NCBI GenBank assembly: GCA_028278065.1
Contig: JANQFA010000038.1
Coordinates: 2,497 to 66,496 of the forward strand
Direction: 5' to 3'
Origin: Myxococcota bacterium
GTDB lineage: Bacteria; Myxococcota_A; UBA9160; JAFDET01
Length of the DNA stretch: 64,000 nucleotides
Part shown: positions 27,072 through 55,603 of the stretch, one piece after another
How positions within the stretch are numbered: the first letter of the stretch is position 1
Layout of the letters: every line of letters starts with the position of its first letter
Position numbers and translations under genes: made by a program
Notes under the pieces: model-generated
What the model was told of the DNA's origin: nothing
Database searches by the model: none
What the model saw: only the letters and a program-made list of their open reading frames with translations

Positions 27072-28481
27072 TCATGCCGCCTCGACCAGCTCGGCGAACG
27101 AACGCTCCAGCATCTCGCAGAAGTCGTCGAGCTCCGCCATCGCCGTGCCGTCGGCGTCCAGTCCGATGAACAGCTGATCCCGGTACCCGTAGAGGGCGAC
27201 GCTGACGGGACAGTGGGGAACGATGGGAGCGATGGGGTACGCAGCCGTGATCTCGGCGCCGGCGATGAAGCGGGTCACCGGCACGCCCGGGATGTTGGTC
27301 ACGATGAGATCCATGGAGCTGCCGGACGCCAGGACGGCGGCGCGGTGGAGCCGGCGGGGAAGCAGGGCGAGCATGTGGGAGAAGTTGGCGAAGACCTCGA
27401 GCGCGGGGGCATCGGCGTGCTCCTCGAACATCTGGTGGATGAGGGCGAAGCGCTCGCGCGGATCGCGCACCGCGATGGGCAGGTGGAAGATGTGCGCCGT
27501 GAGCCGGTTGCCCACGTGGGTGTCCAGGCCCTGGTTGTCGCGGGGACGCAGATTGACCGGCACGGTCGTGAGCACGGTCTCGGCGTCCCCCCGGCCGCGG
27601 CTCCGGTGCCATTCGCCCATGGCGCCGGCCACTCCGGTCATCAGGAGCTCCACGGTCCGCCCGCCCAGGCGCTTCCGGGCGGCCCGCAGCGGCTCGAACG
27701 GGATCGCGAGTCCGCCCAGGCGCCGTGCGCGGCCGTAGCGGTCGAGGTGGGCCCGGCTCGAGTTGAAGAAGGTCTCCGACAGCTCCGCCCCTCCGCGAGC
27801 CAGGTCGAGCATTCGCGACGGATTCCGGACCAGATCCTGCATCGCCCGGCCCATGCTGCGCGCGCGCCCGAAGTCGTCGCTCATCCGGTCGCGGATGGCT
27901 CGCGCGACCAGGGCGGCGAAGCTCGGCTCGGGCCAGGTACCGGGGCTCTCTTCAGGGGGAGGCGGAGCCGGATCCCCGTCCCGTTCCGCATCGGTCAGTG
28001 CGCCCAGGACGGCGTTGGCTCCGACGCCGTCGGCGATGGAGTGGTGGAGGCGACAGAAGAGCGCCGAGCGCCCATCGGGCCGGTCGATCTCGATGAGCTC
28101 CCACAGCGGTCGTGCACGGTCGAAGGGGCGCTCGTAGATCGGGCCGATCGAGTGGAACAGCTCGCTCAGCTCGTTCTCCGCATCGACGCCGGCGTGGAGC
28201 GAGTAGCGCCGCAGGTGGAAGTCGAGATCGAAGGTGGGATCCCGCTCCCAGCGCGGGAGCGCCATGTCGAACGGCGCATCCACGACCCGCTGGTCCAGCC
28301 GCGGCACCGCCTGGACGGCCCGCCACGCGTTGGCGCGCAGACGCTCGGGATCCGGAGGCCGGTCCAGGAGCATCAGCATCGCCATCGTGTTGCGCTGGCG
28401 CGGCTGGTCGCTGTACCACCAGTTGAGGTCTTCGGGGGTCAGCGGCTCGCGAGCCGGCTCACGGGGGGGCTGCGCCATCAC
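27072..28481 (-). CDS. WS/DGAT-family acyltransferase (wax ester synthase / acyl-CoA:alcohol acyltransferase)
   Basis: 469 aa with the catalytic HHxxxDG motif (LHHSIADGVG) and the C-terminal NIPGVP block. Confidence 0.88.
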   Translation of the reverse strand: MMAQPPREPAREPLTPEDLNWWYSDQPRQRNTMAMLMLLDRPPDPERLRANAWRAVQAVPRLDQRVVDAPFDMALPRWERDPTFDLDFHLRRYSLHAGVDAENELSELFHSIGPIYERPFDRARPLWELIEIDRPDGRSALFCRLHHSIADGVGANAVLGALTDAERDGDPAPPPPEESPGTWPEPSFAALVARAIRDRMSDDFGRARSMGRAMQDLVRNPSRMLDLARGGAELSETFFNSSRAHLDRYGRARRLGGLAIPFEPLRAARKRLGGRTVELLMTGVAGAMGEWHRSRGRGDAETVLTTVPVNLRPRDNQGLDTHVGNRLTAHIFHLPIAVRDPRERFALIHQMFEEHADAPALEVFANFSHMLALLPRRLHRAAVLASGSSMDLIVTNIPGVPVTRFIAGAEITAAYPIAPIVPHCPVSVALYGYRDQLFIGLDADGTAMAELDDFCEMLERSFAELVEAA

Positions 28482-28545: not shown

Positions 28546-29565
28546 TCATGCCAGCCACTGTGGCCACACGGGCATCACGCTGTACTCCGCCGTTCCCGTG
28601 CCCGTCTCGCCGGTCTCCTCCACCTCGAAGTCACAGAAGGCCTCGTAGCAGTCCATGCGGTTCTCGAGGTCGTTCTCGGCGCGCAGCCAGAGCTTGATCG
28701 TCCCGTGGTGCTTCGTGCTCTTCACGTGGATCACCTCACCGTCGGGCATGGTGAACTCGTAGCGGAAGGAGTTCGCCTCGCGCACCGAGGCGCTGCCGTC
28801 GTTGGGAGCGATCTCCCCCTTGGCGTTCAGCAGCGGCCGACTCCCGTCCTTGTCCGACACGAATCCGCCGACCGAACGCTCCTTGGGGTCCTTCTCGTTC
28901 TGGTAGTAGAGCGCGAAGACGTTGATGTGCTTGTCGGGGAGCTGGATCGAGGGCCAGAAGTGCGCCGCGAAGTGCGCCTCGTCGACCTTCCAGTTCTGGG
29001 GCACCGCGAAGCGGCTGGTCCAGGTGTGGTCGCGATGGCTCCAGCAGTTGATCTCGCGGGTTTCCCCCGCCGCCGGCCCGCCGCGGATCTCGAACTGGCC
29101 CGTGCAGTCCATGGCCTGCTCGTAGTGCCCTCCGTAGAACTCGTCGAAGAGCTTCATCGGGTCGCCGCTGGGCAGCGAGTTGTCGTAGTTGAAGGGGGCG
29201 AAGCGTCCCTTGAAGTCCAGGTCGAAGGCATACTTCTCCCAGTCCAGGGCGATGCGGATGTGCTCCCAGGGCTCCACGACCTCGTAGGTCATGCGCCCGT
29301 CGGTCCAGGGGCCGTTGTCGGGCTCGGGGCTCAGCGGGATCTTGTTGCCGTAGAGCTGGACGACTCCGTCGATCACGTAGAGGGCCTCGAAGCGGGCGTA
29401 CCCCTTGTTGGTGAGATGGAAGTGGTTCACGCCGTGGATTCCGGCCGCGGGGTCGACCACGCTCACCCAGAGCGTGTCCCCGAACAGCACCTTGTCGGAG
29501 CCTTCTCGTCCGCGGTGCCTGAACTCGTCCTCGTCCACCAGACCTTCCGGAGCCTTGAATGACAC
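28546..29565 (-). CDS. Conserved protein of unknown function, 339 aa (paralogue of 54584-55603)
   Basis: Strong coding signal and no TM or signal peptide. It is about 71% identical (242/339 in my gap-free hand count) to the second copy. Invariant blocks include IHGVNHFHLTNKG, FDLDFKGRFAPFNY, CWSHRDHTWTSRF and DCYEAFCDFEVEETGE. Confidence 0.8.
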   Translation of the reverse strand: MSFKAPEGLVDEDEFRHRGREGSDKVLFGDTLWVSVVDPAAGIHGVNHFHLTNKGYARFEALYVIDGVVQLYGNKIPLSPEPDNGPWTDGRMTYEVVEPWEHIRIALDWEKYAFDLDFKGRFAPFNYDNSLPSGDPMKLFDEFYGGHYEQAMDCTGQFEIRGGPAAGETREINCWSHRDHTWTSRFAVPQNWKVDEAHFAAHFWPSIQLPDKHINVFALYYQNEKDPKERSVGGFVSDKDGSRPLLNAKGEIAPNDGSASVREANSFRYEFTMPDGEVIHVKSTKHHGTIKLWLRAENDLENRMDCYEAFCDFEVEETGETGTGTAEYSVMPVWPQWLA

Positions 29566-29638: not shown

Positions 29639-30322
29639 TCAGCTCCCGTGGGACTCCCGCTCGAGGAGCTGCAGACTGGCAGCGGCTTCCTGGTGCTCGC
29701 GCACCAGCGCCTCGAGATCCTTGGCGGCCTTTCCGCGGGCGAGACCCAACAACGTCACCGCGGCCCCGTAGAGCATGGTCGGCCGCAGTGCCTCGTCGCT
29801 GATCTGGTGGAGCGCCCAGGCGAAGGTCATCACGTTGATCTGCGCGGCGAGCCGCTCGGCCAGGGGCCGCGCGTGCGCCCACTGGGCGAGCTGACGGTCT
29901 GCCCGCATCTCCTCGAGGGCACGGGTCAGCTCGCGCGCGAGCCCGCCCGCCACCACGTCGGCGAGCCCGGCGGTCGTGTCCGAGGTATCGCGCATGAAGC
30001 TCACGAGCGAGCGCGAGTAGGCGGCGTGGCGTGGAGTCTCCCGGCTCAGGGTCTCGATCAGCGAGATCACCCGCGAGAGACCGCTCTCCGAGCCGACGAC
30101 GCCGACCATGCCGACCAGCTCGGTGAAGTAGGATTCGACCGCCGTCGAGAGCAGCTCGGTCTTGCTGCCGAAGAGCGCGTACAGGGTCGGAACCGACACG
30201 AGTCCACGCTCGGCGAGATCGCGCATGGTGACCGCGTCGTAGCCCCGCTCCGCGATGAGGTCGCGCGCGGCTTCCAGGATGCGCCGCCGCCGCTCCTCTC
30301 TCTGCCGAACCACCAGACCCAC
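29639..30322 (-). CDS. TetR/AcrR-family transcriptional regulator
   Basis: The HTH region is RRRRILEAARDLIAERGYDAVTMRDLAERGLVSVPTLYALFGSKTELL. The start is placed at GTG 30320-30322 (alternative GTG 30313), and the longer 325-aa track ORF is rejected. About 227 aa. Confidence 0.8.
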   Translation of the reverse strand: MGLVVRQREERRRRILEAARDLIAERGYDAVTMRDLAERGLVSVPTLYALFGSKTELLSTAVESYFTELVGMVGVVGSESGLSRVISLIETLSRETPRHAAYSRSLVSFMRDTSDTTAGLADVVAGGLARELTRALEEMRADRQLAQWAHARPLAERLAAQINVMTFAWALHQISDEALRPTMLYGAAVTLLGLARGKAAKDLEALVREHQEAAASLQLLERESHGS

Positions 30323-30423
30323 TGCGTCCCCGCTGCACCGCTCATGGGCGGCGCTCTCGTCCCGGACCCGCGGTACCGTGGCCCCCTCCGGGCTGTGGCA
30401 TGGGGCCCCGATTCCGCTCGATA

Positions 30424-30453
30424 TTAACGCATTCAAATGCCTGAACGTGTTAA
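30424..30453. promoter_or_regulatory. Candidate TetR operator (imperfect palindrome) in a divergent promoter region
   Basis: TTAACGCATTCA-AATGCC-TGAACGTGTTAA has 12-nt arms matching 10/12. It sits in an unusually A/T-rich patch of the 244-nt gap between the TetR gene (-) and the SDR gene (+). Confidence 0.45.
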
Positions 30454-30566
30454 GATACGGAATCGGATGGCCTTCCGCCGCCGGGCGTGCGGAGGCCTCC
30501 CATCCCCTGATTTTTTTGAGCGATTCCGGTGCGTTGTACTCGGGTCGCAGAAGAGGAGCAGTCGAG

Positions 30567-31334
30567 ATGAAGGGTCCCCTGGAAGGCCGGACGGCGATCG
30601 TAACGGGTGGAGGCACCGGCCTGGGCCTCGGCTACGCCCGGGCCCTGGCAGGCGCGGGCGCGGCCACCGCCGTGACCGGGCGCAGGCAGGAGCCGCTGGA
30701 CGAGTGCGTCGCGGCGATCGAGCAGAGCGGCGGAAAGGCCCTGGCCGTGACCTGCGACCAGCGCTCGCGCGAGCAGGTGGACGCGGCCGTGGAGCAGGTC
30801 GTGAGCTGGGGCGAAAAGGTCGACATCCTCGTCAACAACGCCGGCATCTATCCCCCGGGGCTCTTCCTCAACGTGGAAGAGGAGCAGTGGCTGGACGTGA
30901 TGGACACCAACATCAACGGCCCCTTCCGCTTCTCCCAGGCGTGTGCGCGGGTCATGGCCCAGCACGGCTGGGGCCGCATCATCAACATCCTCTCGCCCTC
31001 CGCCGTCCTGGGATTCGCGATGGTGAGCGCCTACGGCACTTCGAAGGGCGCTCTCGGATCCATGACGCGGGTCATGGCGGCCGAGCTCGGTCCCATGGGC
31101 ATCACCGTCAACGCGCTCACCCCGGGTGTCTCGGCGACCGAGACCTTCGTCGGCCTGTACACGACGGTGGGCGTCGACATGATGTCCAAGGGCCTGCCGC
31201 TGCAGCGCGCCTGCGAGAACGACGACATGACGGGCGCACTGCTGATGCTGGCCTCGGACGCGGGCGGATACATCACCGGAGCCAACATCTGCATCGATGG
31301 CGGCATGACCAGCACGTTCTCGCTCGGCAGCTGA
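30567..31334 (+). CDS. Short-chain dehydrogenase/reductase (SDR)
   Basis: ATG 30567 is preceded by AAGAGGAG; 255 aa. Contains TGGGTGLGLG, NNAG and YGTSK. Confidence 0.88.
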   Translation: MKGPLEGRTAIVTGGGTGLGLGYARALAGAGAATAVTGRRQEPLDECVAAIEQSGGKALAVTCDQRSREQVDAAVEQVVSWGEKVDILVNNAGIYPPGLFLNVEEEQWLDVMDTNINGPFRFSQACARVMAQHGWGRIINILSPSAVLGFAMVSAYGTSKGALGSMTRVMAAELGPMGITVNALTPGVSATETFVGLYTTVGVDMMSKGLPLQRACENDDMTGALLMLASDAGGYITGANICIDGGMTSTFSLGS

Positions 31335-34637: not shown

Positions 34638-37010
34638 TCAGACCAGGACACCCTGCCCCTTCAGGTCTTCGATCTCGTCGTCGGCGAGCTCCACGAGCTG
34701 CTTGAAGACGTAGTCGTTGTCCCCGCCCAGCGCCGGCGTTCCTCGCGTCACTTCCGGTGGCGTCTCGCTCAGAAGCCAGGGGGTGGAGTAGATCCGGCAG
34801 GGATCGAAGCCCTCGAACTCGTGCTGATAGCAGAGCCCCCGCTCGACGAAGTGGGGATGCTCGTTGCGCTCCTCGAGCTCCAGAACCGCCGACGCGGGTA
34901 TCCCCGCTTCCACCAGCTGCGCCACCGCCGTGTCGCGCTCCTGGGATCGGGTCCACGCCGTGACGGCCTCGGCGATCTCCCCGGCCCGCTCGCGACGCCG
35001 CTCGGCGCTCGCCAGCTCCGCATCCCCGGCCCAGTCGCCGCGCCCGATCAGGTCGCACAGGGCGCGCCACTCGGGCTCGCTGCGCACGGCGAGCGCGATC
35101 CATCTCTCGTCGCCCTCGGCCGCGAAGATCCCGTGCGGGAAGAAGCGTGTGTGACCGTTTCCCTGCGGCCCGACGGCGTCTCCCGCGAGCTGGTGGGCGA
35201 GCAGCGGCTCGCCGAGGGTCGAGGCCGCCGAGTCCATCTGGCTCACGTCCACGAACTGCCCCTCGCCGGTACGCGCGCGGTGGTGCAGAGCGGCCAGCGC
35301 CCCGATGACGCCCTGGATCGCCATGGTCGTATCGCCGAGACCGAAGGGCAGCAGGCCCGTGGAGGTGTCGATCTCGGGATAGCCCACCATCAGCTCCATC
35401 CCGGAGTATCCGGTGGCGATGGATGCGAAGCCGCGCATGCCACGCAGCGGCCCCTCCTGGCCGGCCATGCTCATGGAGACCGTGATGATCCGGGGGTTCT
35501 CCTTGCTGAGATCGTCGTGTGCGAGGCCGTTCTTCGCCATGACCCCCGCGGCGAAGTTGTCCATGACGATGTCCGCCTTGCGGGCCAGGCGCTGCACCAG
35601 CCGCTGGCCGTCCGGGCTCCCGAGGTTGAAGGTCGCGGACATCTTGCTGCGGTTGTTGTGGCAGAAGAACCAGGAGGTGTAGTCGAGGAAGCGCATCAGG
35701 TCCTGGCGCTTGCTGGTCTCGACACGGATCACCTCGGCACCCATGTCGGCCAGAAGCTGGCCGGCCATCGGGCCCGCCCAGTTCCAGCCGAAATCGAGCA
35801 CACGAACGCCCTCGAGGGCGCGGGCCGGGCCGTCGCCCTGCTCCAGGCGGATGGGCTCGGGGGGGCGCGCCCGCAACGCATCACCGTCGGCATCGAGAGC
35901 CGGCCCCCGCGTGCCGAGGGCCGTCGGCGTGTGCTTCAGCTGGTAGCCCGGCTTGGGTGCAACCGGACCCGGGTCGGCGATGCGAAGCTCGGAGAAGAGC
36001 TCGCGGAAGGCGTACTGCTCGCTCGCCAGAACCTCGTCCACGTTCTGGGCCACGCCCATGACGATGTTCTCGGCCATCGCCATCTCGATCAGCTCGGCGC
36101 GGGTGTACTCCATCAGCCAGCTCTTGAAGTGCTTGTCGGCCGGCTTGGAGTCGACCAGGCCCAGATAGGCGGCGTTCCCGGCCTGCCCTTCCTTGGACCA
36201 CCTGGGGTTGTCCATCAGGGCGAGGAAGGCCTCCCACTGCTTGGGTGTCTGCGAGGCGATGCACACGAAGCCGTCCTTGCAGGCGAAGAAGCCGGTGGGA
36301 TACATGGAGCCCTTCATCGACGTGCTTCGCTGGCCCCACTTCGACCCGCCCTTCGCGCCGACCAGGTGCATGCCCCCGACGCAGTAGGCCATCACCTGCG
36401 CCACCGAGACGTCGACGCCCTGTCCTCGACCGGAGGAGCGCCGCGCGTACAGCGCGCACAGGGCAGCCGCGAAGGCGTGCAGGGCAGCCTGGTAGTCGCC
36501 CTGCTCGAAGGGGATGCGCAGAGGCTCCCGATCGGGCATGCCCAGCGCGAGAGGCAGGGAGGCAGCAGCCTGGGCCGTGAGGTCGACTCCGGGACGGTCT
36601 GCCCAGGGTCCGCTGCGCCCGTAGGGCGAGAGAGACACCACGACCAGGTGCGGGTGGCGTGCCAGGAGCGAAGCCGAGTCCAGCCCGAAGCGCGCGTACT
36701 CGGCGGGCTCGCTGTTCTCGACCAGCACGTCGGCGCCGGCGAGCAGGGTGTGGAAGAACTCGAGCTGATCCGGGTCTTCCAGGTCGGCGACGACGCCCCG
36801 CTTTCCGGCGTTCAGGTAGTGGAAGATCCCGCTGGCGTCGGGGTGCGCGCCGCCGCCCGCAAAGGGCCCCTGGGCGCGGGACGGATCGCCGCCGGGAGCC
36901 TCGACCTTGATCACGTCGGCACCCAGATCGGCGAACAGGCGCGCGCAGTAGGGACCGGACACGTCCCGGCCCAGCTCCACCACGCGCAGGTCTTCGAGCG
37001 CGCCCGCCAT
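34638..37010 (-). CDS. Fused double-domain family III (CaiB/BaiF-type) CoA-transferase
   Basis: 790 aa with two modules (LRVVELGRDVSGPYCARLFADLGADVIKVEAP and LEGVRVLDFGWNWAGPMAGQLLADMGAEVIRVET). It is a paralogue of 21804-24218. Confidence 0.9.
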   Translation of the reverse strand: MAGALEDLRVVELGRDVSGPYCARLFADLGADVIKVEAPGGDPSRAQGPFAGGGAHPDASGIFHYLNAGKRGVVADLEDPDQLEFFHTLLAGADVLVENSEPAEYARFGLDSASLLARHPHLVVVSLSPYGRSGPWADRPGVDLTAQAAASLPLALGMPDREPLRIPFEQGDYQAALHAFAAALCALYARRSSGRGQGVDVSVAQVMAYCVGGMHLVGAKGGSKWGQRSTSMKGSMYPTGFFACKDGFVCIASQTPKQWEAFLALMDNPRWSKEGQAGNAAYLGLVDSKPADKHFKSWLMEYTRAELIEMAMAENIVMGVAQNVDEVLASEQYAFRELFSELRIADPGPVAPKPGYQLKHTPTALGTRGPALDADGDALRARPPEPIRLEQGDGPARALEGVRVLDFGWNWAGPMAGQLLADMGAEVIRVETSKRQDLMRFLDYTSWFFCHNNRSKMSATFNLGSPDGQRLVQRLARKADIVMDNFAAGVMAKNGLAHDDLSKENPRIITVSMSMAGQEGPLRGMRGFASIATGYSGMELMVGYPEIDTSTGLLPFGLGDTTMAIQGVIGALAALHHRARTGEGQFVDVSQMDSAASTLGEPLLAHQLAGDAVGPQGNGHTRFFPHGIFAAEGDERWIALAVRSEPEWRALCDLIGRGDWAGDAELASAERRRERAGEIAEAVTAWTRSQERDTAVAQLVEAGIPASAVLELEERNEHPHFVERGLCYQHEFEGFDPCRIYSTPWLLSETPPEVTRGTPALGGDNDYVFKQLVELADDEIEDLKGQGVLV

Positions 37011-47235: not shown

Positions 47236-47263
47236 GTCGTCCGGAAGGCTGGTTGGTCCCGAT

Positions 47264-47293
47264 TTAACGGGTTAAGTATATTGCATCTGTTAA
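47264..47293. promoter_or_regulatory. A/T-rich patch with TTAAC/GTTAA repeats and a TATATT box in a divergent promoter region
   Basis: The sequence is TTAACGGGTTAA-GTATATTGCATCT-GTTAA. Three TTAAC/GTTAA pentamers and a -10-like TATATT (47277-47282) lie in the 104-nt gap between the ligase (-) and the small-protein gene (+). Confidence 0.3.
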
Positions 47294-47339
47294 AGTGCGC
47301 CACGGGAATCGCGCCCCAACCACGGACGAAGGCGGCCAC

Positions 47340-47738
47340 ATGATTCTATGGTCGAAGGGACTGGGAAAGCTGGTCCTCAGAATGAGCCTGGCGGAGCGAT
47401 CAGCCACCAGCGAGCAGGACGAGACCCTGGTCATCGATGGGACCATGGGGCCGCCGACCCACTGGGACTACGCGGTCAAGATGAACGAAGCCGACGTCCT
47501 CGACTTCGTCGACCTGCTCAAGCAGCCGGCCGCCGTGCGATTCGCCACCGAGGCCGACGCGACCGGTCCGCTGGTACGCGCCGCGCTCACCAGCGGCATC
47601 GTCTTCGCCTGGAACACGACGCGCTGCTTCCTCGGCCTGGACACCCGGTCCGAAGACGATGCGGAGGCAGGAACGACGCCCGCCGCGACGAAGCCGAGCG
47701 CAACGGCCGACCAGGAATCAGGAACAGATCGGAGCTAG
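47340..47738 (+). CDS. Small protein of unknown family (S1), paralogue of 51125-51607
   Basis: 132 aa from ATG 47340. This start is chosen because MILWSKGLGK aligns with the N-terminus MEFWSKGLGK of the paralogue. Third positions are G/C-rich. Its stop lies 8 nt before the CrtI-like gene. Confidence 0.6.
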   Translation: MILWSKGLGKLVLRMSLAERSATSEQDETLVIDGTMGPPTHWDYAVKMNEADVLDFVDLLKQPAAVRFATEADATGPLVRAALTSGIVFAWNTTRCFLGLDTRSEDDAEAGTTPAATKPSATADQESGTDRS

Positions 47739-47746
47739 CGACCAAG

Positions 47747-49462
47747 ATGCCGGGCCCTGAAAGAGAGTACGACGTCATCGTCGTCGGCGGAGGCATCAAC
47801 GGCCTCACCGCGGCGATCTATCTCCAGAAGTCGGGCCTGCGGGTCGCCTGCTTCGAGCGCAAGCTCGAAGCGGGATCCGGATGCTGCACCGAAGAGGTGA
47901 TGCAGCCCGGCGTGAAGGTGAACCTGTGCGCCTGCAACATGGCGACCCTCTGGTCGCCCGCCTACGGCGACCTCGAGCTCGAGAAGTTCGGCCTCGACAT
48001 GCTCACCTCCAGCGAGTGGGGGATGTTCCACCCCTTCAAGGACCGTTCGGCGGTGATGTTCAACTCGTTCCACGCCCAGAAGACCTACGAGCACTTCAGG
48101 AGCCGGAACGCGCATGATGCCGAGCTGTACAAGACGGCCTTCAACGTCATGGGCCCGATGCTCGGCGACACCATGATGGGCTCGATGTTCAGCCAGGCGA
48201 CCAACGGCCCCGAAGAGGCCGTGGCGGCCGAGGGCCTGGGCTCCGCCCTCCGCGCGATCATCCCCGAGATCCCCGAGAACGTCCACGAGCTCAACGGAAT
48301 CGAGCTCGCCGAGGCGGTCTACCACGACGAGAAGATCCGCACGGCCATTCTCGCCAACTGCATCATGGCGGGCTCCCACCCCTGGGATCGGGGCATGTCG
48401 ACTCTCATGCCCATCGTCTTCCCCATCATGCAGGCAGTCCAGAGCGTCACCTGGACCTGCCGCGGCGGGAGCCACTCCCTCGTGCACGCCCTCGCCTCCT
48501 GCTTCGCCTACCACGGCGGGCGGATGTTCACCGGCTGCCCGGTGGACGAGATGATCATGGAGGGCGACTCGGTCAAGGGCATCGCGCTCTCGAAGCACGC
48601 CATCTTCCCCGAGGCGGAGGTCCGGGCACGCCGCGCGGTGGTGAGCAACCTCTCGTGCCATCCGACCTTCCTGGATCTGATCGGCGAGGACAGGCTTCCC
48701 GACTGGGTGAAGGACGGCGTCGACGCCTACAAGAACGACGAGACGGTTCTCTTCGCCAACTACTGGGTGCTCGACCGGCCGCCCCGCTGGGAGGGCTACC
48801 CGGAGGAGATCAACGAGGCGTACGGCTTCAACTTCGGGATGGAGAGCGTCGACGACATCCGTCGGCTCGAACACTGCCTCGAGAACGACGAGCTTCCCGA
48901 CCCGCCCATCGTCTCCGGGCTCTCGGTGCAGGGCTTCGCCCTGGCCGATCCCAGCCAGGCGCCCGAGGGCCAGTACACGATGATGGCCTGGTCGAACGTG
49001 CCGTACAAGCTCCCGCAGCTCGGAGGACCCGAGAAGTGGGACGAGATCCGCGAGAGCTACGGGGACAAGGTCGACGACCTGCTCCGGGAGTACAACCCCG
49101 GCCTGATGGACTCGGTGGTGGACCGCTACTGCAACTCGCCGCTCGACTACTACCGGAAGAACCCCAGCCAGGTGATGGGCAGCACGACGAGCGGCCCCAC
49201 CTGCCTGAAGTGGTACGGCACCGCCCGCCCCTTCCCGGGCTGCGGCGCGCCGCGCACGCCCTTCGAGAACCTCTATCTCTCGAACTCGATCTGGCCTTTC
49301 GGCACCAGCAACCTCGGAGCCGGCTACGTGGCGGCCAGCATCGTCGCCGAGGATCTCGGCGTGCGCAAAGACCAGGACGATTGGTGGCGACACAAGAGCC
49401 TGGAAGCGGGATTCGAGCTGCTGAAGCGACGCGGCATCGAAGTGGATCTCAACATCTCCTGA
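47747..49462 (+). CDS. CrtI/phytoene-desaturase-family FAD-dependent oxidoreductase (subunit A-like)
   Basis: 571 aa. The N-terminal dinucleotide fold is EYDVIVVGGGINGLTAAIYLQKSGLRVACFE, and both the length and the C-terminal region are typical of COG1233-type enzymes. Confidence 0.88.
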   Translation: MPGPEREYDVIVVGGGINGLTAAIYLQKSGLRVACFERKLEAGSGCCTEEVMQPGVKVNLCACNMATLWSPAYGDLELEKFGLDMLTSSEWGMFHPFKDRSAVMFNSFHAQKTYEHFRSRNAHDAELYKTAFNVMGPMLGDTMMGSMFSQATNGPEEAVAAEGLGSALRAIIPEIPENVHELNGIELAEAVYHDEKIRTAILANCIMAGSHPWDRGMSTLMPIVFPIMQAVQSVTWTCRGGSHSLVHALASCFAYHGGRMFTGCPVDEMIMEGDSVKGIALSKHAIFPEAEVRARRAVVSNLSCHPTFLDLIGEDRLPDWVKDGVDAYKNDETVLFANYWVLDRPPRWEGYPEEINEAYGFNFGMESVDDIRRLEHCLENDELPDPPIVSGLSVQGFALADPSQAPEGQYTMMAWSNVPYKLPQLGGPEKWDEIRESYGDKVDDLLREYNPGLMDSVVDRYCNSPLDYYRKNPSQVMGSTTSGPTCLKWYGTARPFPGCGAPRTPFENLYLSNSIWPFGTSNLGAGYVAASIVAEDLGVRKDQDDWWRHKSLEAGFELLKRRGIEVDLNIS

Positions 49463-49496
49463 CGCCGGAGCACTGCAGCTTCATCGGAGTGCGTGG

Positions 49497-51125
49497 GTGG
49501 CAAACCTCGACGACAAGTACGACGTGATCATCATCGGCGGCGGCCCGAACGGACTGACGGCCGCCGGGTACCTGGCGAAGGCCGGCGCAAAGACGCTCCT
49601 CCTCGAACGCCACCACGAGGGCGGCGGCGGGCTCGTCACCGAGGAGTTCTCGGGCTTCCGCTTCAACACCCACGCGAAGCTGATGCTGATGATGGACTGC
49701 ATGCCGCCCTACGCGGACATGAACCTCGAGAGCTGGGGCTGCCGCTACGTCATTCCCGACGCGGCGCTCTCCCTGCTCACCCGGGACGGCAGGGCCCTCA
49801 CGCTCTACAGCGACATCCAGCGCTCCGCCAAGAGCATCGCGCAGTTCTCGACCGACGACGCCGAGCGCTACATCGGCCTGATGCAGGACTGGTACACCAT
49901 CGTCAACGAGGCCCTGATTCCGGCCACCTACTCCCTCCCCCTGCCCATGCTCGACATGGTCGTCAGCTACCAGCAGAGCGAGCTGGGGCGGGTCGTGAAC
50001 GACATGGCCGAGGAGACGTTCCTCGAGACCCTGGCCGCCGCCGGCTTCGAGAACAGCCTCGTCGAGGCCGCGCTGCTCTTCATGGGCACCATGTACGGCA
50101 TCGATCCCGAGGACGGCCTCGGCTTCCTCCTGCCCCTGTACGCGAACCGGGTGCTCCACTCGGCGGTGATCCTGTCCGGCTCCCACCAGCTGGCCGCCTC
50201 CCTGTCGCGCTTCGCGAACAACGCCGGCGCGAGCCTGGAGCGGGCCGCAGAGGTCACCAAGATCCTCACCGACGGAACCAAGGCCGTCGGGGTCCGCCTG
50301 GCGAGCGGCGAGGAGGTCTTCGCGGAGAAGATCATCGCCACGACCGATCCGGAGATGACCTTCCTCGACCTGGTCGGCGAAGACGTCTGCAACGCCGCGT
50401 CGCCCACCCTCGTCGCCCAGACGAAGGAGTGGGAGTGGGAGTCGGTCAGCCTCTACAACGTCCACTTCGCGCTCTCGGAGCGCCCCCGATACGCCGCCGC
50501 CGAGGACGATCCGGAGGTGGATCGGTCGCTGATCAAGGTCATGGGGCTCGAGTCCGTGGACGAGGTGATGAACCACATCAAGACGGTGAAGGAAGGCGGC
50601 TTCAGCCTGGCGGGCTCCGCCACCACCTTCACCGACTACGATCCCATGCAGGCCCCCATCGACGTCGAGCCCGGCTCCGCGGTCGCCTGCTTCGAGACCA
50701 TCGCCCCTTACGAGAACCGGGACGGCGACTGGGACGACGTCGGCGAAGGCTACGTCAAGAGGATCCGTGACATGTGGAGCGAGTACGCTCCCAACCTCAG
50801 GGATGCGACCGTGGTGCGGCACTACGTGAACCACCCGAAGGCGATCGAGGCCAAGCTGCCCAACATGAAGCGCGGATCGATCAAGCACGGGGCCTACCTT
50901 CCGACCCAGATGCTCTCGAACCGACCCAACCCCGACTGCTCGTCGTACCGCACGCCGATCGAGAACCTCTACGTGGGCGGGGCCAGCGTGTGGCCCGGCG
51001 GGATGGTGCTGCTCGGCGGGGGCTACAACGTGGCCGGGGTGGTGGCGGACGACCTGGGGCTCGAACGCTGGTGGAACGAGCCCGAGTACGTGGTCGAAGC
51101 ACGCAAGAAGGGACTGGTCGGCTGA
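49497..51125 (+). CDS. CrtI/phytoene-desaturase-family FAD-dependent oxidoreductase (subunit B-like)
   Basis: 542 aa with a GTG start. Contains KYDVIIIGGGPNGLTAAGYLAKAGAKTLLLE and a C-terminal NLYVGGASVWPGG block. It is a diverged paralogue of the preceding gene. Confidence 0.88.
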   Translation: MANLDDKYDVIIIGGGPNGLTAAGYLAKAGAKTLLLERHHEGGGGLVTEEFSGFRFNTHAKLMLMMDCMPPYADMNLESWGCRYVIPDAALSLLTRDGRALTLYSDIQRSAKSIAQFSTDDAERYIGLMQDWYTIVNEALIPATYSLPLPMLDMVVSYQQSELGRVVNDMAEETFLETLAAAGFENSLVEAALLFMGTMYGIDPEDGLGFLLPLYANRVLHSAVILSGSHQLAASLSRFANNAGASLERAAEVTKILTDGTKAVGVRLASGEEVFAEKIIATTDPEMTFLDLVGEDVCNAASPTLVAQTKEWEWESVSLYNVHFALSERPRYAAAEDDPEVDRSLIKVMGLESVDEVMNHIKTVKEGGFSLAGSATTFTDYDPMQAPIDVEPGSAVACFETIAPYENRDGDWDDVGEGYVKRIRDMWSEYAPNLRDATVVRHYVNHPKAIEAKLPNMKRGSIKHGAYLPTQMLSNRPNPDCSSYRTPIENLYVGGASVWPGGMVLLGGGYNVAGVVADDLGLERWWNEPEYVVEARKKGLVG

Positions 51126-51607
51126 TGGAGTTCTGGTCGAAAGGTCTGGGAAAGAAGACGATCGCCCTGCAGCTCACCGCGGGCGAGTCTCTGGTCAGTG
51201 AGGACGCCCTGTGTCTGAAGGGGGTCATGGAGGAGCCGGTCTCGTGGGAGTACGTGATGCTCCTCGACAAGACCGACCTCGTGGACTTCTTCGTCATCCT
51301 GCAGGAGCCGAACCTCGCCCGCTACATCCACGCTTCTCCCAATCGCTGGCGCCTCTACCTCGGAATGGTGAAGGGCGGCGCGCAGATCGCCCTGCGGGTG
51401 CTCGCCTCCCTCTGGAAGCAGAGCTTCGGCAACGCGGCGCCGGCGGAGAAGGTGGTGATCGAGCTGCCGCCCCCCTCGATGATCAAGAAGAAGAGGAAGA
51501 AGAAGGTCCTCTACCGCCGCCGGCTCAGCACCACCACCCTCGCCGCGCCGACGATGACCCCTCTAGCCTCGACCGGCGAGGCCACCCTCCGGGCCGGTCG
51601 CGTGTAG
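51125..51607 (+). CDS. Small protein of unknown family (S2) with a polybasic tail, paralogue of 47340-47738
   Basis: 160 aa. Its ATG overlaps the upstream stop (TGATG). It shares WSKGLGK, G-x-M-x-x-P-x-x-W-x-Y and D-x-x-DF anchors with S1 and contains MIKKKRKKKVLYRRRL. Confidence 0.6.
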   Translation: MEFWSKGLGKKTIALQLTAGESLVSEDALCLKGVMEEPVSWEYVMLLDKTDLVDFFVILQEPNLARYIHASPNRWRLYLGMVKGGAQIALRVLASLWKQSFGNAAPAEKVVIELPPPSMIKKKRKKKVLYRRRLSTTTLAAPTMTPLASTGEATLRAGRV

Positions 51608-51610
51608 CCC

Positions 51611-52606
51611 ATGGCGGAGGTCACCGCCGAGATGGCGGCGCCGCTGGAGAAGGCGCTCAGGGAGAGGGCCCCCCGCCTGGGAGTCCACCGGGTCCTCGCC
51701 ATCGAGCGCCTCACCACCGGGCTCTCGTCCCAGAGCTACAGCGTCGAGACGGAGACCGCCTCGGGGCCACTGCGCCTCGTGATGAGGGTAGAGCCCGAGC
51801 ACGGCGTGATCCCCCCCTACGACATCGCCCGGGAGTACCGCCTGCTTCGCGAGGTACACGAAGCCGGCCTGCCCACCCCGGGTGTGGTCCACCTCGAAGA
51901 GGATCAGTCCGTGGTCGGCGGCCGCTTCATCCTGATGACCTTCGTGGAGGGGGTCATCTACCGGAACATGGACGAGCGCCTCGCAGACGACCCTGCCCGA
52001 CTGGCCGCGATGCAGGAGCGGTTCGTCGAGATGCTGGCTCGAATCCACGATACGCCCCAGACCGTGCTGCCGAACCACACCAGCGGCGAGGACGCGGCGC
52101 GCGCCGAGGTGGCCATCTGCCGCCACCGGCTGGAGCGGACGGAGCTCCTGCCCTCTCCGATCATCCGCCACGCCCTCGACGTCCTCCACGAGCACGCGCC
52201 GTCGGCCCAGCGCCTGGCGCTGCTGCATGGGGACTACCGACTGCCGAACCTGATGTGGAAGGGTGAGACGATCTCGGGTGTGCTCGACTGGGAGCTGGCA
52301 CGCGTAGGCGACCCTCTGAGCGACCTGGCCTTCACGCAGACCATCGGCCGCGGCCTCTGCTCGATCGAAGGGGAGCTGGCGGCCCGCTACGGCGAGCTCA
52401 CCGGGATCGAGATCGACGATCGCCGGCTCGTCTACTATCGGCTGCTCGAGATGGTGAAGGGCACGATCATCGGCCTCGCGGGTGCCTACGACCTGGCCCA
52501 TGGCGGCGACGACCTGCGCCTGCTCTCCGTGGCCCGCATCGCGGCCGCCGGACAGGCGATCATGGGAGGCCTCGAGGCACAGCTCGAGGCATTCCTGGAG
52601 ACCTGA
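51611..52606 (+). CDS. APH-like phosphotransferase (kinase-fold) family protein
   Basis: 331 aa. The catalytic loop is LLHGDYRLPNLMW and the metal-binding segment is VLDWELARVGDPLSDLAF. It starts 3 nt after the S2 stop. Confidence 0.85.
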   Translation: MAEVTAEMAAPLEKALRERAPRLGVHRVLAIERLTTGLSSQSYSVETETASGPLRLVMRVEPEHGVIPPYDIAREYRLLREVHEAGLPTPGVVHLEEDQSVVGGRFILMTFVEGVIYRNMDERLADDPARLAAMQERFVEMLARIHDTPQTVLPNHTSGEDAARAEVAICRHRLERTELLPSPIIRHALDVLHEHAPSAQRLALLHGDYRLPNLMWKGETISGVLDWELARVGDPLSDLAFTQTIGRGLCSIEGELAARYGELTGIEIDDRRLVYYRLLEMVKGTIIGLAGAYDLAHGGDDLRLLSVARIAAAGQAIMGGLEAQLEAFLET

Positions 52607-52609
52607 AGC

Positions 52610-53062
52610 ATGATCGTGCTCGACTCGGCCCAGATCCTCACCGCGGTGGGGCTCTCCCTCCGGAACCATGTGCTCCCCGCACTCGAGGACGATTTCGCCC
52701 GGGTGCAGGTGATGTCGGCCCTGAAGGCTCTCGCCGAGGTGAGCGACCGCCTCGAGAACGGCGATCCGGCCGAACGGTCGAACGCCATCATCGAAGGAGG
52801 TGTGCGCGAGCTCGCCGACTCGATCCGCTCCGACGCGCCCGACTTCGCGGCGAAGCTCGACGCCGCCGTGGCGGCGAAGCCCGAAGGAGATGCTCCCCGC
52901 GACCGCTCGAGACAGCTGGGAGAGGCCTTGTGGGAGCTCTGCGCGCGGGACGAGGGCGCGGCGGCGGCGCGCCTGCTCGCTCTCCTGCAGGCCGAGGCCC
53001 TGCGGACGATGGGCGAGGACAATGCCTGGATCTGCCCCGAAGCGATCGAGTCGCTCACCTGA
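52610..53062 (+). CDS. Hypothetical helical protein (150 aa)
   Basis: It starts 3 nt after the kinase stop, has G/C-rich third positions and an Ala/Leu/Glu-rich helical composition. No family recognised. Confidence 0.6.
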   Translation: MIVLDSAQILTAVGLSLRNHVLPALEDDFARVQVMSALKALAEVSDRLENGDPAERSNAIIEGGVRELADSIRSDAPDFAAKLDAAVAAKPEGDAPRDRSRQLGEALWELCARDEGAAAARLLALLQAEALRTMGEDNAWICPEAIESLT

Positions 53063-54583: not shown

Positions 54584-55603
54584 ATGTCATTTGCACCCCC
54601 GGACGGACTCACCGAAGAGGACGAGTTCCGTCATGCCCTCGTGGATGCGCCCAGCAACGTCCTCTTCGGCGACAGCCTCTGGGTGAGCGTGGTCGATCCG
54701 GAGGCGAACATCCACGGCGTCAACCACTTCCATCTCACCAACAAGGGCTTTGCACGCTACGAGGCCCTGTACCTCATCGACGGTGTCCTGCAGCAGTACG
54801 GCAACAAGTTCCCCCTGCCGCGCCAGATCGAGCACGGTCCCTGGGACGACGGGCGGCTGCGCTACGAGGTGGTCGACCCCTACAACCACATCCGCATCAC
54901 GCTGGACTGGGACAACTTCTCGTTCGACCTCGACTTCAAGGGCCGCTTCGCGCCCTTCAACTACGCCAACTCCTCCCCGAACGGCGATCCCATGCGGGTC
55001 TTCGACGAGTACTACGGGGGACACTTCGAGCAGGCCATGAACTGCACGGGCACACTCGAGATCCACGGAGGCCGCGCCAAGGGACAGACCCGCCAGATCG
55101 ACTGCTGGAGCCACCGCGATCACACCTGGACCTCGCGTTTCAACGAGCGCAACGACTGGTACGTGCGGGAGGGCCACTTCCCCGCCCACTTCTGGCCCTC
55201 CATCCAGCTCCCGGATCGACACATCAACGTTCTCGGGATGTACTACCAGAACGACACGCCCATCGAAGAGCGGGTCAATGCCGGGTTCGTCTCCGACAAG
55301 GACGGCAGCCGGCCGATCCTGAACGCCAAGGGATGGATCATCCCCAACGACGGTACGCCGGAGGTGCGAACCGCCAAGGAGTTCCGGTACGAGATCACCC
55401 TGCCCGACGGCGAAGTCATCCACGTCAAGAACACCCGTCACCACGGGACCGTCAAGCTCTGGATGCGGGCCGAGAACGACCTCGAGAACCGCCTGGACTG
55501 CTACGAGGCCTTCTGCGACTTCGAGGTCGAGGAGACGGGCGAAGTCGGCACCGGCACTGCCGAGTACGACGTGATGCCGCCGCTTCCCCAGTGGCTGGTC
55601 TGA
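54584..55603 (+). CDS. Conserved protein of unknown function, 339 aa (paralogue of 28546-29565)
   Basis: Colinear with, the same length as, and about 71% identical to the first copy. It is flanked by SDR genes. Confidence 0.8.
   Translation: MSFAPPDGLTEEDEFRHALVDAPSNVLFGDSLWVSVVDPEANIHGVNHFHLTNKGFARYEALYLIDGVLQQYGNKFPLPRQIEHGPWDDGRLRYEVVDPYNHIRITLDWDNFSFDLDFKGRFAPFNYANSSPNGDPMRVFDEYYGGHFEQAMNCTGTLEIHGGRAKGQTRQIDCWSHRDHTWTSRFNERNDWYVREGHFPAHFWPSIQLPDRHINVLGMYYQNDTPIEERVNAGFVSDKDGSRPILNAKGWIIPNDGTPEVRTAKEFRYEITLPDGEVIHVKNTRHHGTVKLWMRAENDLENRLDCYEAFCDFEVEETGEVGTGTAEYDVMPPLPQWLV

Follow-up and report, generated by a model that had tools for sequence, protein, structure and literature searches.

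Two flavoenzyme-like genes, A and B, stand in tandem in a Myxococcota genome with a gene for a small protein on either side, S1 before A and S2 after B. What kind of enzyme does the pair form, and what do the small proteins contribute to it? We analysed the locus within the window, a stretch of 64,000 nt. The enzyme pair is of a known kind; the new part is the conserved family of WSKGLG proteins, probable partners of the enzyme, represented by S1 and S2. The four plus-strand genes, with order, lengths and gaps as first noted and coordinates now verified, are given in Table 1. S1 and A are 8 nt apart, A and B 34 nt, and B and S2 overlap by 1 nt (TGATG), an overlap kept in survey loci L002 and L004. 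Junctions that overlap or span only 3-8 nt suggest translational coupling.

Table 1. The cassette and its flanks, in window coordinates
Feature	Position	Strand	Description
Divergent intergenic region, 104 nt	47236-47339	none	between acyl-CoA synthetase gene (-) and S1 (+)
S1	47340-47738	+	132 aa, ATG start; candidate small partner protein
A	47747-49462	+	571 aa, ATG start; putative alpha-type large subunit, CtmAB / delta-24-SD-type flavoenzyme
B	49497-51125	+	542 aa, GTG start; putative beta-type large subunit
S2	51125-51607	+	160 aa, ATG start; candidate small partner protein, S1 paralogue
APH-family kinase	51611-52606	+	331 aa; 3 nt past S2; Pfam APH 1e-38
150-aa protein without known family	52610-53062	+	paired with kinase

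The enzyme pair

Both large proteins carry a GxGxxG dinucleotide fold (A 47780-47806, B 49530-49556) and align with each other over their full length (27% identity, E 2e-45), which bears out their early description as diverged paralogues with an FAD-binding fold. [quoted passage not shown] B, for which 860 homologues were found, reads GFRFNTHA (49653-49676, His59 at 49671-49673), in agreement with the published flavinylation consensus of the delta-24-SD family, G-F-L/R-X-N/S-T/L-H-A, and the His is present in 25 of 25 close B homologues. This correspondence of A to alpha and B to beta, together with the motif in B and the level of A-B identity, places the pair by sequence in the CtmAB / delta-24-SD family of heteromeric covalent-flavin dehydrogenases, and the comparison with CtmAB drawn in the preliminary description thus reflects a real family relationship.

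A departs from the family pattern at the flavin site. In alignment to delta-24-SD alpha the His-containing motif is absent from A, which reads GVKVNLCA (47909-47932) and has Cys61 (47927-47929) where alpha has its FMN-bound His57. The Cys is fixed in 23 of 23 close A homologues, whereas 24 of 26 A-like proteins at 50-70% identity have His.

Characterised members of the family oxidise isoprenoid chains, without O2, at a C-H bond beside a C=C bond and carry a covalent flavin near the N terminus. To our knowledge limonene dehydrogenase and delta-24-SD are the only CtmAB-type enzymes characterised so far, each described as a two-subunit enzyme with no known natural electron acceptor. Limonene dehydrogenase, CtmAB of Castellaniella defragrans, is like A and B a heteromeric COG1233 flavoprotein pair (27% mutual identity); it needs no O2 to hydroxylate an allylic methyl group (PMC4109377). 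The ctm operon supplies a ferredoxin and a ferredoxin reductase (ctmEF), whereas a scan of 51 window proteins gave neither of these, nor an ETF, in accord with the initial observation that no such genes lie nearby. Delta-24-SD likewise has two adjacent paralogous subunits (63 and 57 kDa, 26% mutual identity) and shares the N-terminal flavinylation motif of B. It is nevertheless not the orthologue of A and B, since its true clade, 58-72% identical to alpha, forms a separate branch, and its genomic context differs by a molybdenum hydroxylase not seen in the window.

A more distant architectural parallel is heterotetrameric sarcosine oxidase (alpha-beta-gamma-delta), which carries a covalent 8-alpha-histidyl-FMN on a Rossmann-type subunit and has two small extra subunits. 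Its beta subunit is among the weak N-terminal (Rossmann-region) PDB matches. The likeness is one of architecture only; the substrate chemistry differs, and a Pfam search gave no relation of SoxG or SoxD to S1 or S2.

A family of small, probable partner proteins

S1 and S2 begin with nearly the same signature, MILWSKGLGK (47340-47369) and MEFWSKGLGK (51125-51154), followed by a core that reads GTMGPPTHWDY...DVLDFVDLLKQP in S1 (47439-47528) and GVMEEPVSWEY...DLVDFFVILQEP in S2 (51221-51310). They then diverge: S1 has a moderately hydrophobic helix (47565-47639) and an acidic Thr/Ala-rich tail, S2 an amphipathic helix (51335-51427) and a conserved LPPPS-polybasic-YRRRL tail (51464-51526) with a net charge of +11. 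The paralogy first estimated by hand holds far beyond chance (32% identity over 68 aa, E 4e-13), and alignment of the whole family lengthens the match to about 100 residues, taking in the next helix. We found 86 homologues of S1 and 97 of S2.

We assign both to a previously undescribed family of small WSKGLG proteins, defined here and without a database entry, by the motif M-x-x-[WR]-S-x-G-L-G at residue 1, a G..P..W.[YF] core, a D..[DE][FIL] helix and a length of 60-200 aa. A local HMM of the family recovers S1 at E 8e-38 and S2 at E 1e-36, and S5, G7, L8, G9, P38, W41 and D51 (S2 numbering) are invariant in the combined S1 and S2 alignment. The family comprises 229 clusters among 1.84 billion proteins, nearly all of them 60-200 aa long and starting with the motif; ten proteobacterial-looking representatives that we looked up are all 'hypothetical protein' entries from MAGs. 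As the preliminary description had it, the small proteins match no characterised family: Pfam returned nothing for S1 or S2 at E<=1 and only single chance matches for 23 family members at E<=10, NCBIfam has no family for either, and the family profile met only chance matches (E>0.7) among PDB sequences. AlphaFold2 monomer models are of low confidence (S1 pLDDT 62.2 from 46 sequences, S2 58.6 from 50) and give a beta-beta-beta-alpha-alpha outline only; a Foldseek search of the PDB with the S1 model found nothing at E<=0.001. The N terminus, the most conserved part of the proteins, is disordered in these models, as expected of a fold that depends on a partner.

Gene neighbourhoods point to the probable partner. 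Four genome scans were made, by the N-terminal motif, by two B alignments (covering the best 80 loci) and by delta-24-SD alpha. The motif alone led to 25 loci, 22 of which have an adjoining A-like and B-like pair. In the reverse direction, from B, family members stand beside a CtmAB-like pair at 58 of 98 loci and beside generic CrtI-like genes at 0 of 62, both among the matches listed; the latter control consists of the low-identity loci of a B scan diluted by the generic Rossmann pattern. The small ORFs thus have homologues in strongly conserved synteny with the enzyme pair, as the initial interpretation required. Loci with adjoining members span at least eight bacterial and three archaeal lineages, with one or two small genes per pair. 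In three genomes (L026, L028, L029) the two small genes form a single continuous reading frame, and such a fusion is seen in Calescibacterium. An apparent fusion of B with S2 (P0327) was rejected as a frameshift artefact. About 40% of the CtmAB-like loci, among the matches listed, have no family member within ~5 kb even at relaxed thresholds, which indicates that the small proteins are not universally needed in cis.

Both characterised systems appear to be part of this pattern. In the ctmABCDEFG operon, two small unassigned genes, ctmC and ctmD, directly follow ctmAB (PMC4109377). The closest retrieved relative of this arrangement, that of strain NaphS2, has two family members at the ctmC/ctmD position, which family genes also occupy in alphaproteobacterial and Calescibacterium loci, and from gene position we predict that CtmC and CtmD are themselves members. 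The small proteins, initially taken as a trait that sets the cassette apart from ctm, therefore do not do so; the difference lies in their placement, after the pair in ctm and on both sides of it in the window. For delta-24-SD, Sterolibacterium MAGs whose alpha is 97% identical to that of the purified enzyme have a family gene (HMM E 1e-27) immediately upstream of alpha. This clade differs from the window in having one small gene rather than two, and the tail of its product is charged instead of hydrophobic.

Related gene pairs number more than 500 in species-representative genomes and range from Myxococcota to Thermoplasmata. CtmAB-type flavoenzymes are among the few known O2-free routes to the activation of unreactive isoprenoid C-H bonds. 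A small protein encoded beside about 60% of the sampled pairs, among the matches listed, may be the subunit or assembly factor that heterologous production has lacked, and may connect the enzyme to the membrane or its electron acceptor. An ORF that begins with WSKGLG next to a tandem COG1233 pair is also a simple genomic marker, separating the catabolic class from the carotenoid CrtI genes with which annotation now lumps it as 'phytoene dehydrogenase-like'.

Possible roles of S1 and S2

S1 and S2 are most likely accessory subunits or membrane tethers. We tentatively posit, as a reading that falls somewhat short of an even chance, that A and B form the core of an isoprenoid-type dehydrogenase that S1 and S2, as dedicated non-catalytic partners, dock onto and tether to the membrane. 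In such a complex, A and B would make up the two-subunit core, B keeping the flavinyl-His and A the clade-fixed Cys. The invariant N terminus (M-x-x-W-S-K-G-L-G) and the small beta-rich domain of the partners would dock onto the large subunits, and their amphipathic or hydrophobic helix, with the polybasic tail of S2, would hold the assembly at the cytoplasmic membrane, where the water-insoluble substrate, and probably the physiological electron acceptor too, would be found. The tether is suggested by a hydrophobic segment that starts near residue 73 and reaches transmembrane strength (KD>=1.6) in 29 of 89 family members, and by the strongly charged S2 tail, which evolves under constraint (dN/dS 0.18); the N-terminal domains of S1 (residues 1-70) and S2 have a dN/dS of 0.22 each. 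Against a tether count the helices of S1 and S2 themselves, which lie below the transmembrane threshold (KD 1.04 and 1.08), the acidic tail of S1 and the charged tail in the delta-24-SD clade. Against a subunit role count the absence of any reported small subunit from delta-24-SD, which was purified from the soluble fraction as two ~60 kDa bands with no mention of one, and of CtmC and CtmD from the C. defragrans proteome, where they went undetected (PMC4109377).

These last two facts also speak for the main rival, which we consider unlikely: that S1 and S2 are maturation factors that bind the apo-subunits transiently, aid covalent flavin attachment or assembly of the heteromer, and are absent from the finished enzyme. 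There is precedent in SdhE/SDHAF2, a small protein dedicated to covalently flavinylated succinate dehydrogenase that promotes flavinyl-His attachment. The family is confined to enzymes defined by a covalent flavin, with one or two small genes per pair each subunit type of the window could have a chaperone of its own, and dN/dS against a close relative is looser for S1 (0.35) and S2 (0.30) than for A (0.11) and B (0.08). However, across the 98 CtmAB-like loci, among the matches listed, the presence of a small gene does not correlate with the flavinyl-His: 40 loci have no small gene nearby, and 37 of these 40 have the His in every subunit. Conversely, A of the window has lost the flavinyl-His, yet S1 is kept. 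Transmembrane-grade helices and polybasic tails would be unusual in soluble assembly factors, and the fused small proteins fit a stable complex better. Nor do S1 and S2, which are paired and have hydrophobic helices, resemble SdhE/SDHAF2 in sequence (no Pfam match).

It is improbable that the small proteins instead handle substrate or product, as lipid or isoprenoid carriers or gates between membrane and active site. Substrates known for these enzymes hardly dissolve in water, and a small domain of beta/alpha type joined to an amphipathic helix could suit such a function; still, neither the PDB profile search nor Foldseek with the S1 model gave any likeness to a known lipid-binding fold, and the domain has only ~65 residues. 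Moreover, the N-terminal signature is shared by clades whose substrates must differ widely, which argues for binding of the conserved enzyme rather than of a variable substrate.

A broader proposition we put forward as possible but doubtful: WSKGLG proteins, CtmC/CtmD and the product of the gene upstream of delta-24-SD alpha included, could be integral to the CtmAB / delta-24-SD class as a whole and have been overlooked there, either (i) coupling these O2-independent, hydrocarbon- and sterol-activating enzymes to the membrane and an electron acceptor or (ii) being required for their unusual covalent flavin. The His-to-Cys change in the alpha subunit of the window's clade would then indicate that flavin is attached in another way or that the subunit is structural and carries no covalent flavin.

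Improbable readings: carotenoid enzymes and spurious frames

The initial label of A and B, 'CrtI/phytoene-desaturase family', holds for the superfamily fold with its GxGxxG motif, shared with CrtI and CrtO (PDB 4dgk aligns with full-length B, E 2e-6), but is otherwise too loose. A reading of A and B as ordinary enzymes of carotenoid synthesis, paralogues of CrtI desaturase or CrtO ketolase that make pigment next to incidental small ORFs, is very improbable. CrtO and crtI_fam are the top NCBIfam names for both proteins, and an RPE65-type carotenoid oxygenase is encoded 20 kb away, yet the scores fall far below the cut-offs (CrtO: A 123, B 175, cut-off 1000; crtI_fam: A 49.5, B 72.5, cut-off 238), and the full-length similarity to delta-24-SD is far stronger. 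CrtI and CrtO are monomeric or homo-oligomeric and hold FAD non-covalently, in contrast to the flavinyl-His motif of B, and none of the 62 generic CrtI-like control loci has an adjoining small gene. No crtB, crtE or crtY genes are present, and the neighbours of the cassette are catabolic.

Long spurious ORFs are common in high-GC DNA, but the idea that S1 and S2 are such frames has practically no chance of being right and is refuted by their in-frame GC3, their purifying selection (dN/dS ~0.3, as the initial interpretation required), the same N terminus in homologues from distant bacterial and archaeal lineages, and the 229 clusters of the protein library. The GC3 excess in all four ORFs (S1 0.83, A 0.93, B 0.95, S2 0.92, in window DNA of 69% GC) is itself a mark of real genes.

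Genomic island and flanking DNA

The surrounding island encodes the RPE65-type carotenoid-cleavage oxygenase, acyl-CoA synthetases, CoA-transferases, ACADs, a hydratase and SDRs. From these neighbours alone, our best guess for the substrate is an isoprenoid acid, an apocarotenoid or a sterol-side-chain-like compound, which the island would process as a CoA thioester. A published preparation of 25-hydroxysteroid kinase co-enriched an acyl-CoA synthetase, a phytoene dehydrogenase and a luciferase-like protein; we rejected this as evidence, because the proteins come from scattered loci.

The AT-richer intergenic region upstream of S1 contains a TTAAC...GTTAA near-palindrome and is presumed to act as promoter and operator; it has no match to the sigma-70 consensus, and a promoter scan gave no promoter-like site. 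Terminator-like sites are no more frequent than in shuffled sequence.

Downstream, the APH-family kinase, closest among solved structures to 3dxp and the ACAD11 kinase domain, follows S2 also in survey loci L002, L006-L013, L017, L018, L022 and L229 and is an operon neighbour conserved across the clade of the window. The 150-aa protein, which gave no Pfam or PDB match, adjoins the kinase in every locus of this clade; in Acidimicrobiia the two genes lie together on the other strand.

The cassette and its paired flavoenzymes

Two CrtI-like flavoenzymes, A and B, bracketed by two small paralogues, S1 and S2, make up a cassette whose four open reading frames lie exactly where the preliminary description placed them, all on the + strand. 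[quoted passage not shown] The genes are spaced by 8 nt (S1/A) and 34 nt (A/B) and overlap by 1 nt (TGATG) at B/S2; in a window of ~69% GC, their GC3 (S1 0.83, A 0.93, B 0.95, S2 0.92) shows the excess typical of real genes. The proposed paralogies are borne out by alignments of S1 with S2 (32% identity, 68 residues, E 4e-13) and of A with B (27% identity, full length, E 2e-45).

Coordinates of features in the window and, where a locus handle (L) is given, in loci retrieved from other genomes
Feature	Position	Strand	Remarks
Double family-III CoA-transferase	21804-24218	+	~800 aa; two family-III domains
RPE65-family carotenoid-cleavage oxygenase	25616-27028		
WS/DGAT wax-ester synthase	27072-28481		
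339-aa protein	28546-29565	-	beside WS/DGAT and RPE65 genes
TetR regulator	29639-30616		
Double family-III CoA-transferase	34638-37010	-	~800 aa; two family-III domains
Divergent intergenic stretch	47236-47339		5' of S1
S1	47340-47738	+	132 aa
A	47747-49462	+	571 aa
Cys61 codon of A	47927-47929		
B	49497-51125	+	542 aa; GTG start
S2	51125-51607	+	160 aa
APH-type kinase and 150-aa protein	51611-53062		kinase 331 aa; after S2, 3-nt gaps
339-aa protein	54584-55603	+	downstream of cassette operon
Kinase/150-aa pair, Acidimicrobiia	L004 13014-14461		opposite strand
Fused small proteins, Candidatus Calescibacterium and bacterium HR19	L026 6001-6900, L028 6001-6900, L029 6001-6846		
Split S1- and S2-like ORFs, long-read MAG	L111 3893-4196 and 7629-7935		

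The label of CrtI/phytoene-desaturase family survives only in part: the best NCBIfam names for A and B are CrtO and crtI_fam, but membership of either is rejected, as scores (CrtO, A 123 and B 175; crtI_fam, 49.5 and 72.5) fall far under the curated cut-offs of 1000 and 238. Their only PDB relative is the remote CrtI structure 4dgk. CtmAB, invoked initially as a precedent, turns out to be kin. CtmAB and delta-24-SD are heteromers of two COG1233 proteins ~26-27% identical to each other (PMC11061730, PMC4109377); delta-24-SD binds FMN covalently at the His of an N-terminal G-F-L/R-X-N/S-T/L-H-A motif in both subunits (PMC11061730), which is present in both CtmAB subunits too (PMC11061730, PMC4109377). 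Compared with the delta-24-SD sequences in the supplement of PMC11061730, A is nearer to alpha (35% identity, E 2e-93) than to beta (27%), and B nearer to beta (38%, E 5e-114) than to alpha (29%); B shares the flavinylation motif, GFRFNTHA fitting the consensus exactly at His59. Judged by these sequence relationships, A/B belongs to the CtmAB/delta-24-SD family. A/B is an orthologue of neither delta-24-SD, whose true clade is 58-72% identical to alpha and forms a different branch, nor CtmAB, and it represents a new clade of a known, rare enzyme family.

The clade also differs where the alpha-type subunit would be flavinylated: unlike alpha, A carries GVKVNLCA, in which Cys61 aligns with the flavin-bound His57. 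Cys occupies this site in 23/23 A homologues with at least 70% N-terminal identity and His in 24 of the 26 with 50-70%, while the flavinyl-His of B is kept in all 25 close homologues. The His-to-Cys change in the alpha-type subunit is derived and marks the window's clade; flavin may be linked to this subunit through the Cys or may not be bound to it covalently. Cys also recurs at this site in A-like partners of other clades, e.g., GFLQNPCA (locus L115) and GYIQNVCA (locus L119).

A small-protein family that accompanies the enzyme pair

No Pfam or NCBIfam model matches S1 or S2 even at E<=1, in keeping with the initial failure to recognise a family. A word-indexed protein collection holds 97 homologues of S2 and 86 of S1, all unnamed and from metagenomes and MAGs; in five MAGs, NCBI locus tags put the two three genes apart. 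The extreme N-terminus is invariant (MEFWSKGLGK in S2, MILWSKGLGK in S1) and is followed by a G..P..W.Y core, a D..DF helix, a hydrophobic or amphipathic helix and, in S2 only, an invariant PPPS-polybasic-RRRL tail. Both proteins are under purifying selection: relative to L229, a close relative whose B is 94% identical, dN/dS is 0.35 for S1 and 0.30 for S2 (A, 0.11; B, 0.08), with 0.22 in the N-terminal domains of both, 0.18 in the S2 tail and 0.83 in the S2 helix. Among 1.84 billion representative proteins, an S1+S2 profile finds 229 clusters at E<=1e-3 and 89 at E<=1e-10, nearly all of 60-200 aa and matching from residue 1; Pfam searches with members reveal no recurring family, and PDB sequences yield no match. 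This S family (signature M-x-x-W-S-K-G-L-G) is described neither in Pfam, NCBIfam or PDB nor in the literature searched. AlphaFold2 models of the monomers have low confidence (pLDDT 58.6 for S2, 62.2 for S1), with three strands, a short helix, a long helix and a disordered N-terminus, the most conserved part; Foldseek with the S1 model finds nothing in PDB at E<=0.001. The most hydrophobic 19-residue stretch begins near residue 73 and reaches transmembrane strength in 29/89 members (e.g., NaphS2, alphaproteobacteria, Calescibacterium); it scores only 1.04 in S1 and 1.08 in S2, whose amphipathic helix precedes a tail with net charge +11.

The neighborhood survey proposed at the outset ties the family to the enzyme pair. 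Scanning 185,579 species-representative genomes for M[EIK][FL]WSKGLG gave 25 loci, 22 with an A-like and B-like pair directly adjacent (tblastn with the window proteins); of the others, one is truncated by a contig end, one lies on a contig of 3.5 kb, and in the third the pair is 3.7 kb distant. Conversely, two scans with B alignments returned >500 CtmB-like relatives; among the best 80 loci per scan, a local S-family HMM, which converged after one round, matches 58 of 98 CtmAB-like loci, always directly beside the pair, and none of 62 loci with only generic CrtI-like genes (<=34% identity to B). The other 40 of these 98 have no S gene within ~5 kb, even at relaxed thresholds.

Gene order varies: S1-A-B-S2 in the window's clade (MAGs labelled Deltaproteobacteria or Myxococcota, Acidimicrobiia and other Actinomycetes, Gammaproteobacteria, Spirochaetaceae); A-B-Sa-Sb, with two S copies, in strain NaphS2, Alphaproteobacteria, a Myxococcales MAG, Calescibacterium and others; S-A-B in the delta-24-SD clade, Smithella and Desulfobacterales; A-B-S in Thermoplasmata and Actinomycetota; and B-S-A in Syntrophorhabdus, Desulfomonilales and Nitrososphaerales. 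In two Candidatus Calescibacterium genomes and bacterium HR19, an in-frame fusion joins both small genes, giving a single protein of 281-299 aa, the second copy beginning at ...YQGGMIFWSKGLG. On a rough neighbor-joining tree, Sa and Sb separate, and S1/S2 of the window's clade fall out as a separate, probably later, duplication, a topology that would imply more than one origin of the two-copy state.

Several loci depart from these layouts. In L001/L010 (CP070734.1, a 3.67-Mb MAG chromosome), B minus its first 24 codons is followed by S2 and the kinase, without A or S1, and directly preceded by a 1015-aa PFOR/ferredoxin-domain gene. The locus is either what is left of a cassette or one in which the electron donor is arranged differently. 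Seven Actinomycetota MAG loci (L069, L073, L101, L103, L107, L120, L124) have four CtmAB-like genes in a row, i.e., two pairs, with a single S-family gene after the second in six and none detected in L101. In L111, the S1- and S2-like ORFs each give two HMM matches in different frames, probably through assembly frameshifts.

Possible roles of S1 and S2

The characterised enzymes may have similar neighbors. Sterolibacterium MAGs encoding subunits 97% (alpha) and 91-93% (beta) identical to the purified desaturase carry an S-family ORF (MRLRSKGLGRREMVMDFREYE..., HMM E 1e-27) ending ~100 nt upstream of alpha. In the ctm operon (ctmABCDEFG), ctmC and ctmD encode hypothetical proteins without BLAST relatives, and the top BLAST match of CtmA/B in 2014 was a NaphS2 protein (PMC4109377). 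The NaphS2 locus has two S-family ORFs right after the pair, in the ctmC/ctmD position; by analogy, we predict that CtmC/CtmD belong to the S family.

From paralogy, selection, specific conserved adjacency, Rosetta-stone fusion of the small proteins and tight operon junctions, we infer that S1/S2 are dedicated partners of the A/B enzyme. Tentatively, we posit that they are non-catalytic subunits: the N-terminal domain would dock on A and B, and the helix and tail would fix the complex to the membrane. The main rival, a maturation or flavinylation factor, seems less likely to us, although it would account for the two bands only of purified delta-24-SD (PMC11061730) and for the absence of CtmC/CtmD from proteomics detections (PMC4109377). 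An obligatory role, as subunit or maturation factor alike, is at odds with the 40 loci lacking an S gene and with the absence of any correlation between S presence and flavinyl-His across CtmAB-like loci.

Island context and substrate

The kinase and 150-aa no-family protein that follow S2 are adjacent in every window-clade locus and stay together even on the opposite strand in Acidimicrobiia. The nearest solved relatives of the kinase, 3dxp and the ACAD11 kinase domain (8v3v), suggest that it acts on a hydroxy-acyl-CoA or a hydroxy-lipid and has a small partner, an arrangement presumably resembling LvaA/LvaB of the levulinate pathway or following 25-hydroxysteroid kinase logic. Genes for a VOC-family protein and an SDR continue the series; on the upstream, divergent side are an acyl-CoA synthetase, two luciferase-like monooxygenases and acyl-CoA dehydrogenases, and farther out an OYE/FAD reductase, an amidohydrolase and a hydratase-like protein. 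The RPE65, WS/DGAT and TetR cluster 20 kb upstream hints at an apocarotenoid or isoprenoid substrate, and gene context is consistent with an isoprenoid or apocarotenoid-like acid being broken down as CoA esters. No ferredoxin or ferredoxin reductase, as already stated in the preliminary description, and likewise no ETF was found among the window proteins scanned.

AT content is locally high in the intergenic stretch 5' of S1, which includes a near-palindrome, TTAACGGGTTAA, and may be an operator for the island's TetR-type regulator. The two 339-aa proteins share 71% identity and lack relatives in Pfam and PDB; where the downstream copy sits in the operon, L229 has a similar gene of 351 aa, also of no family.
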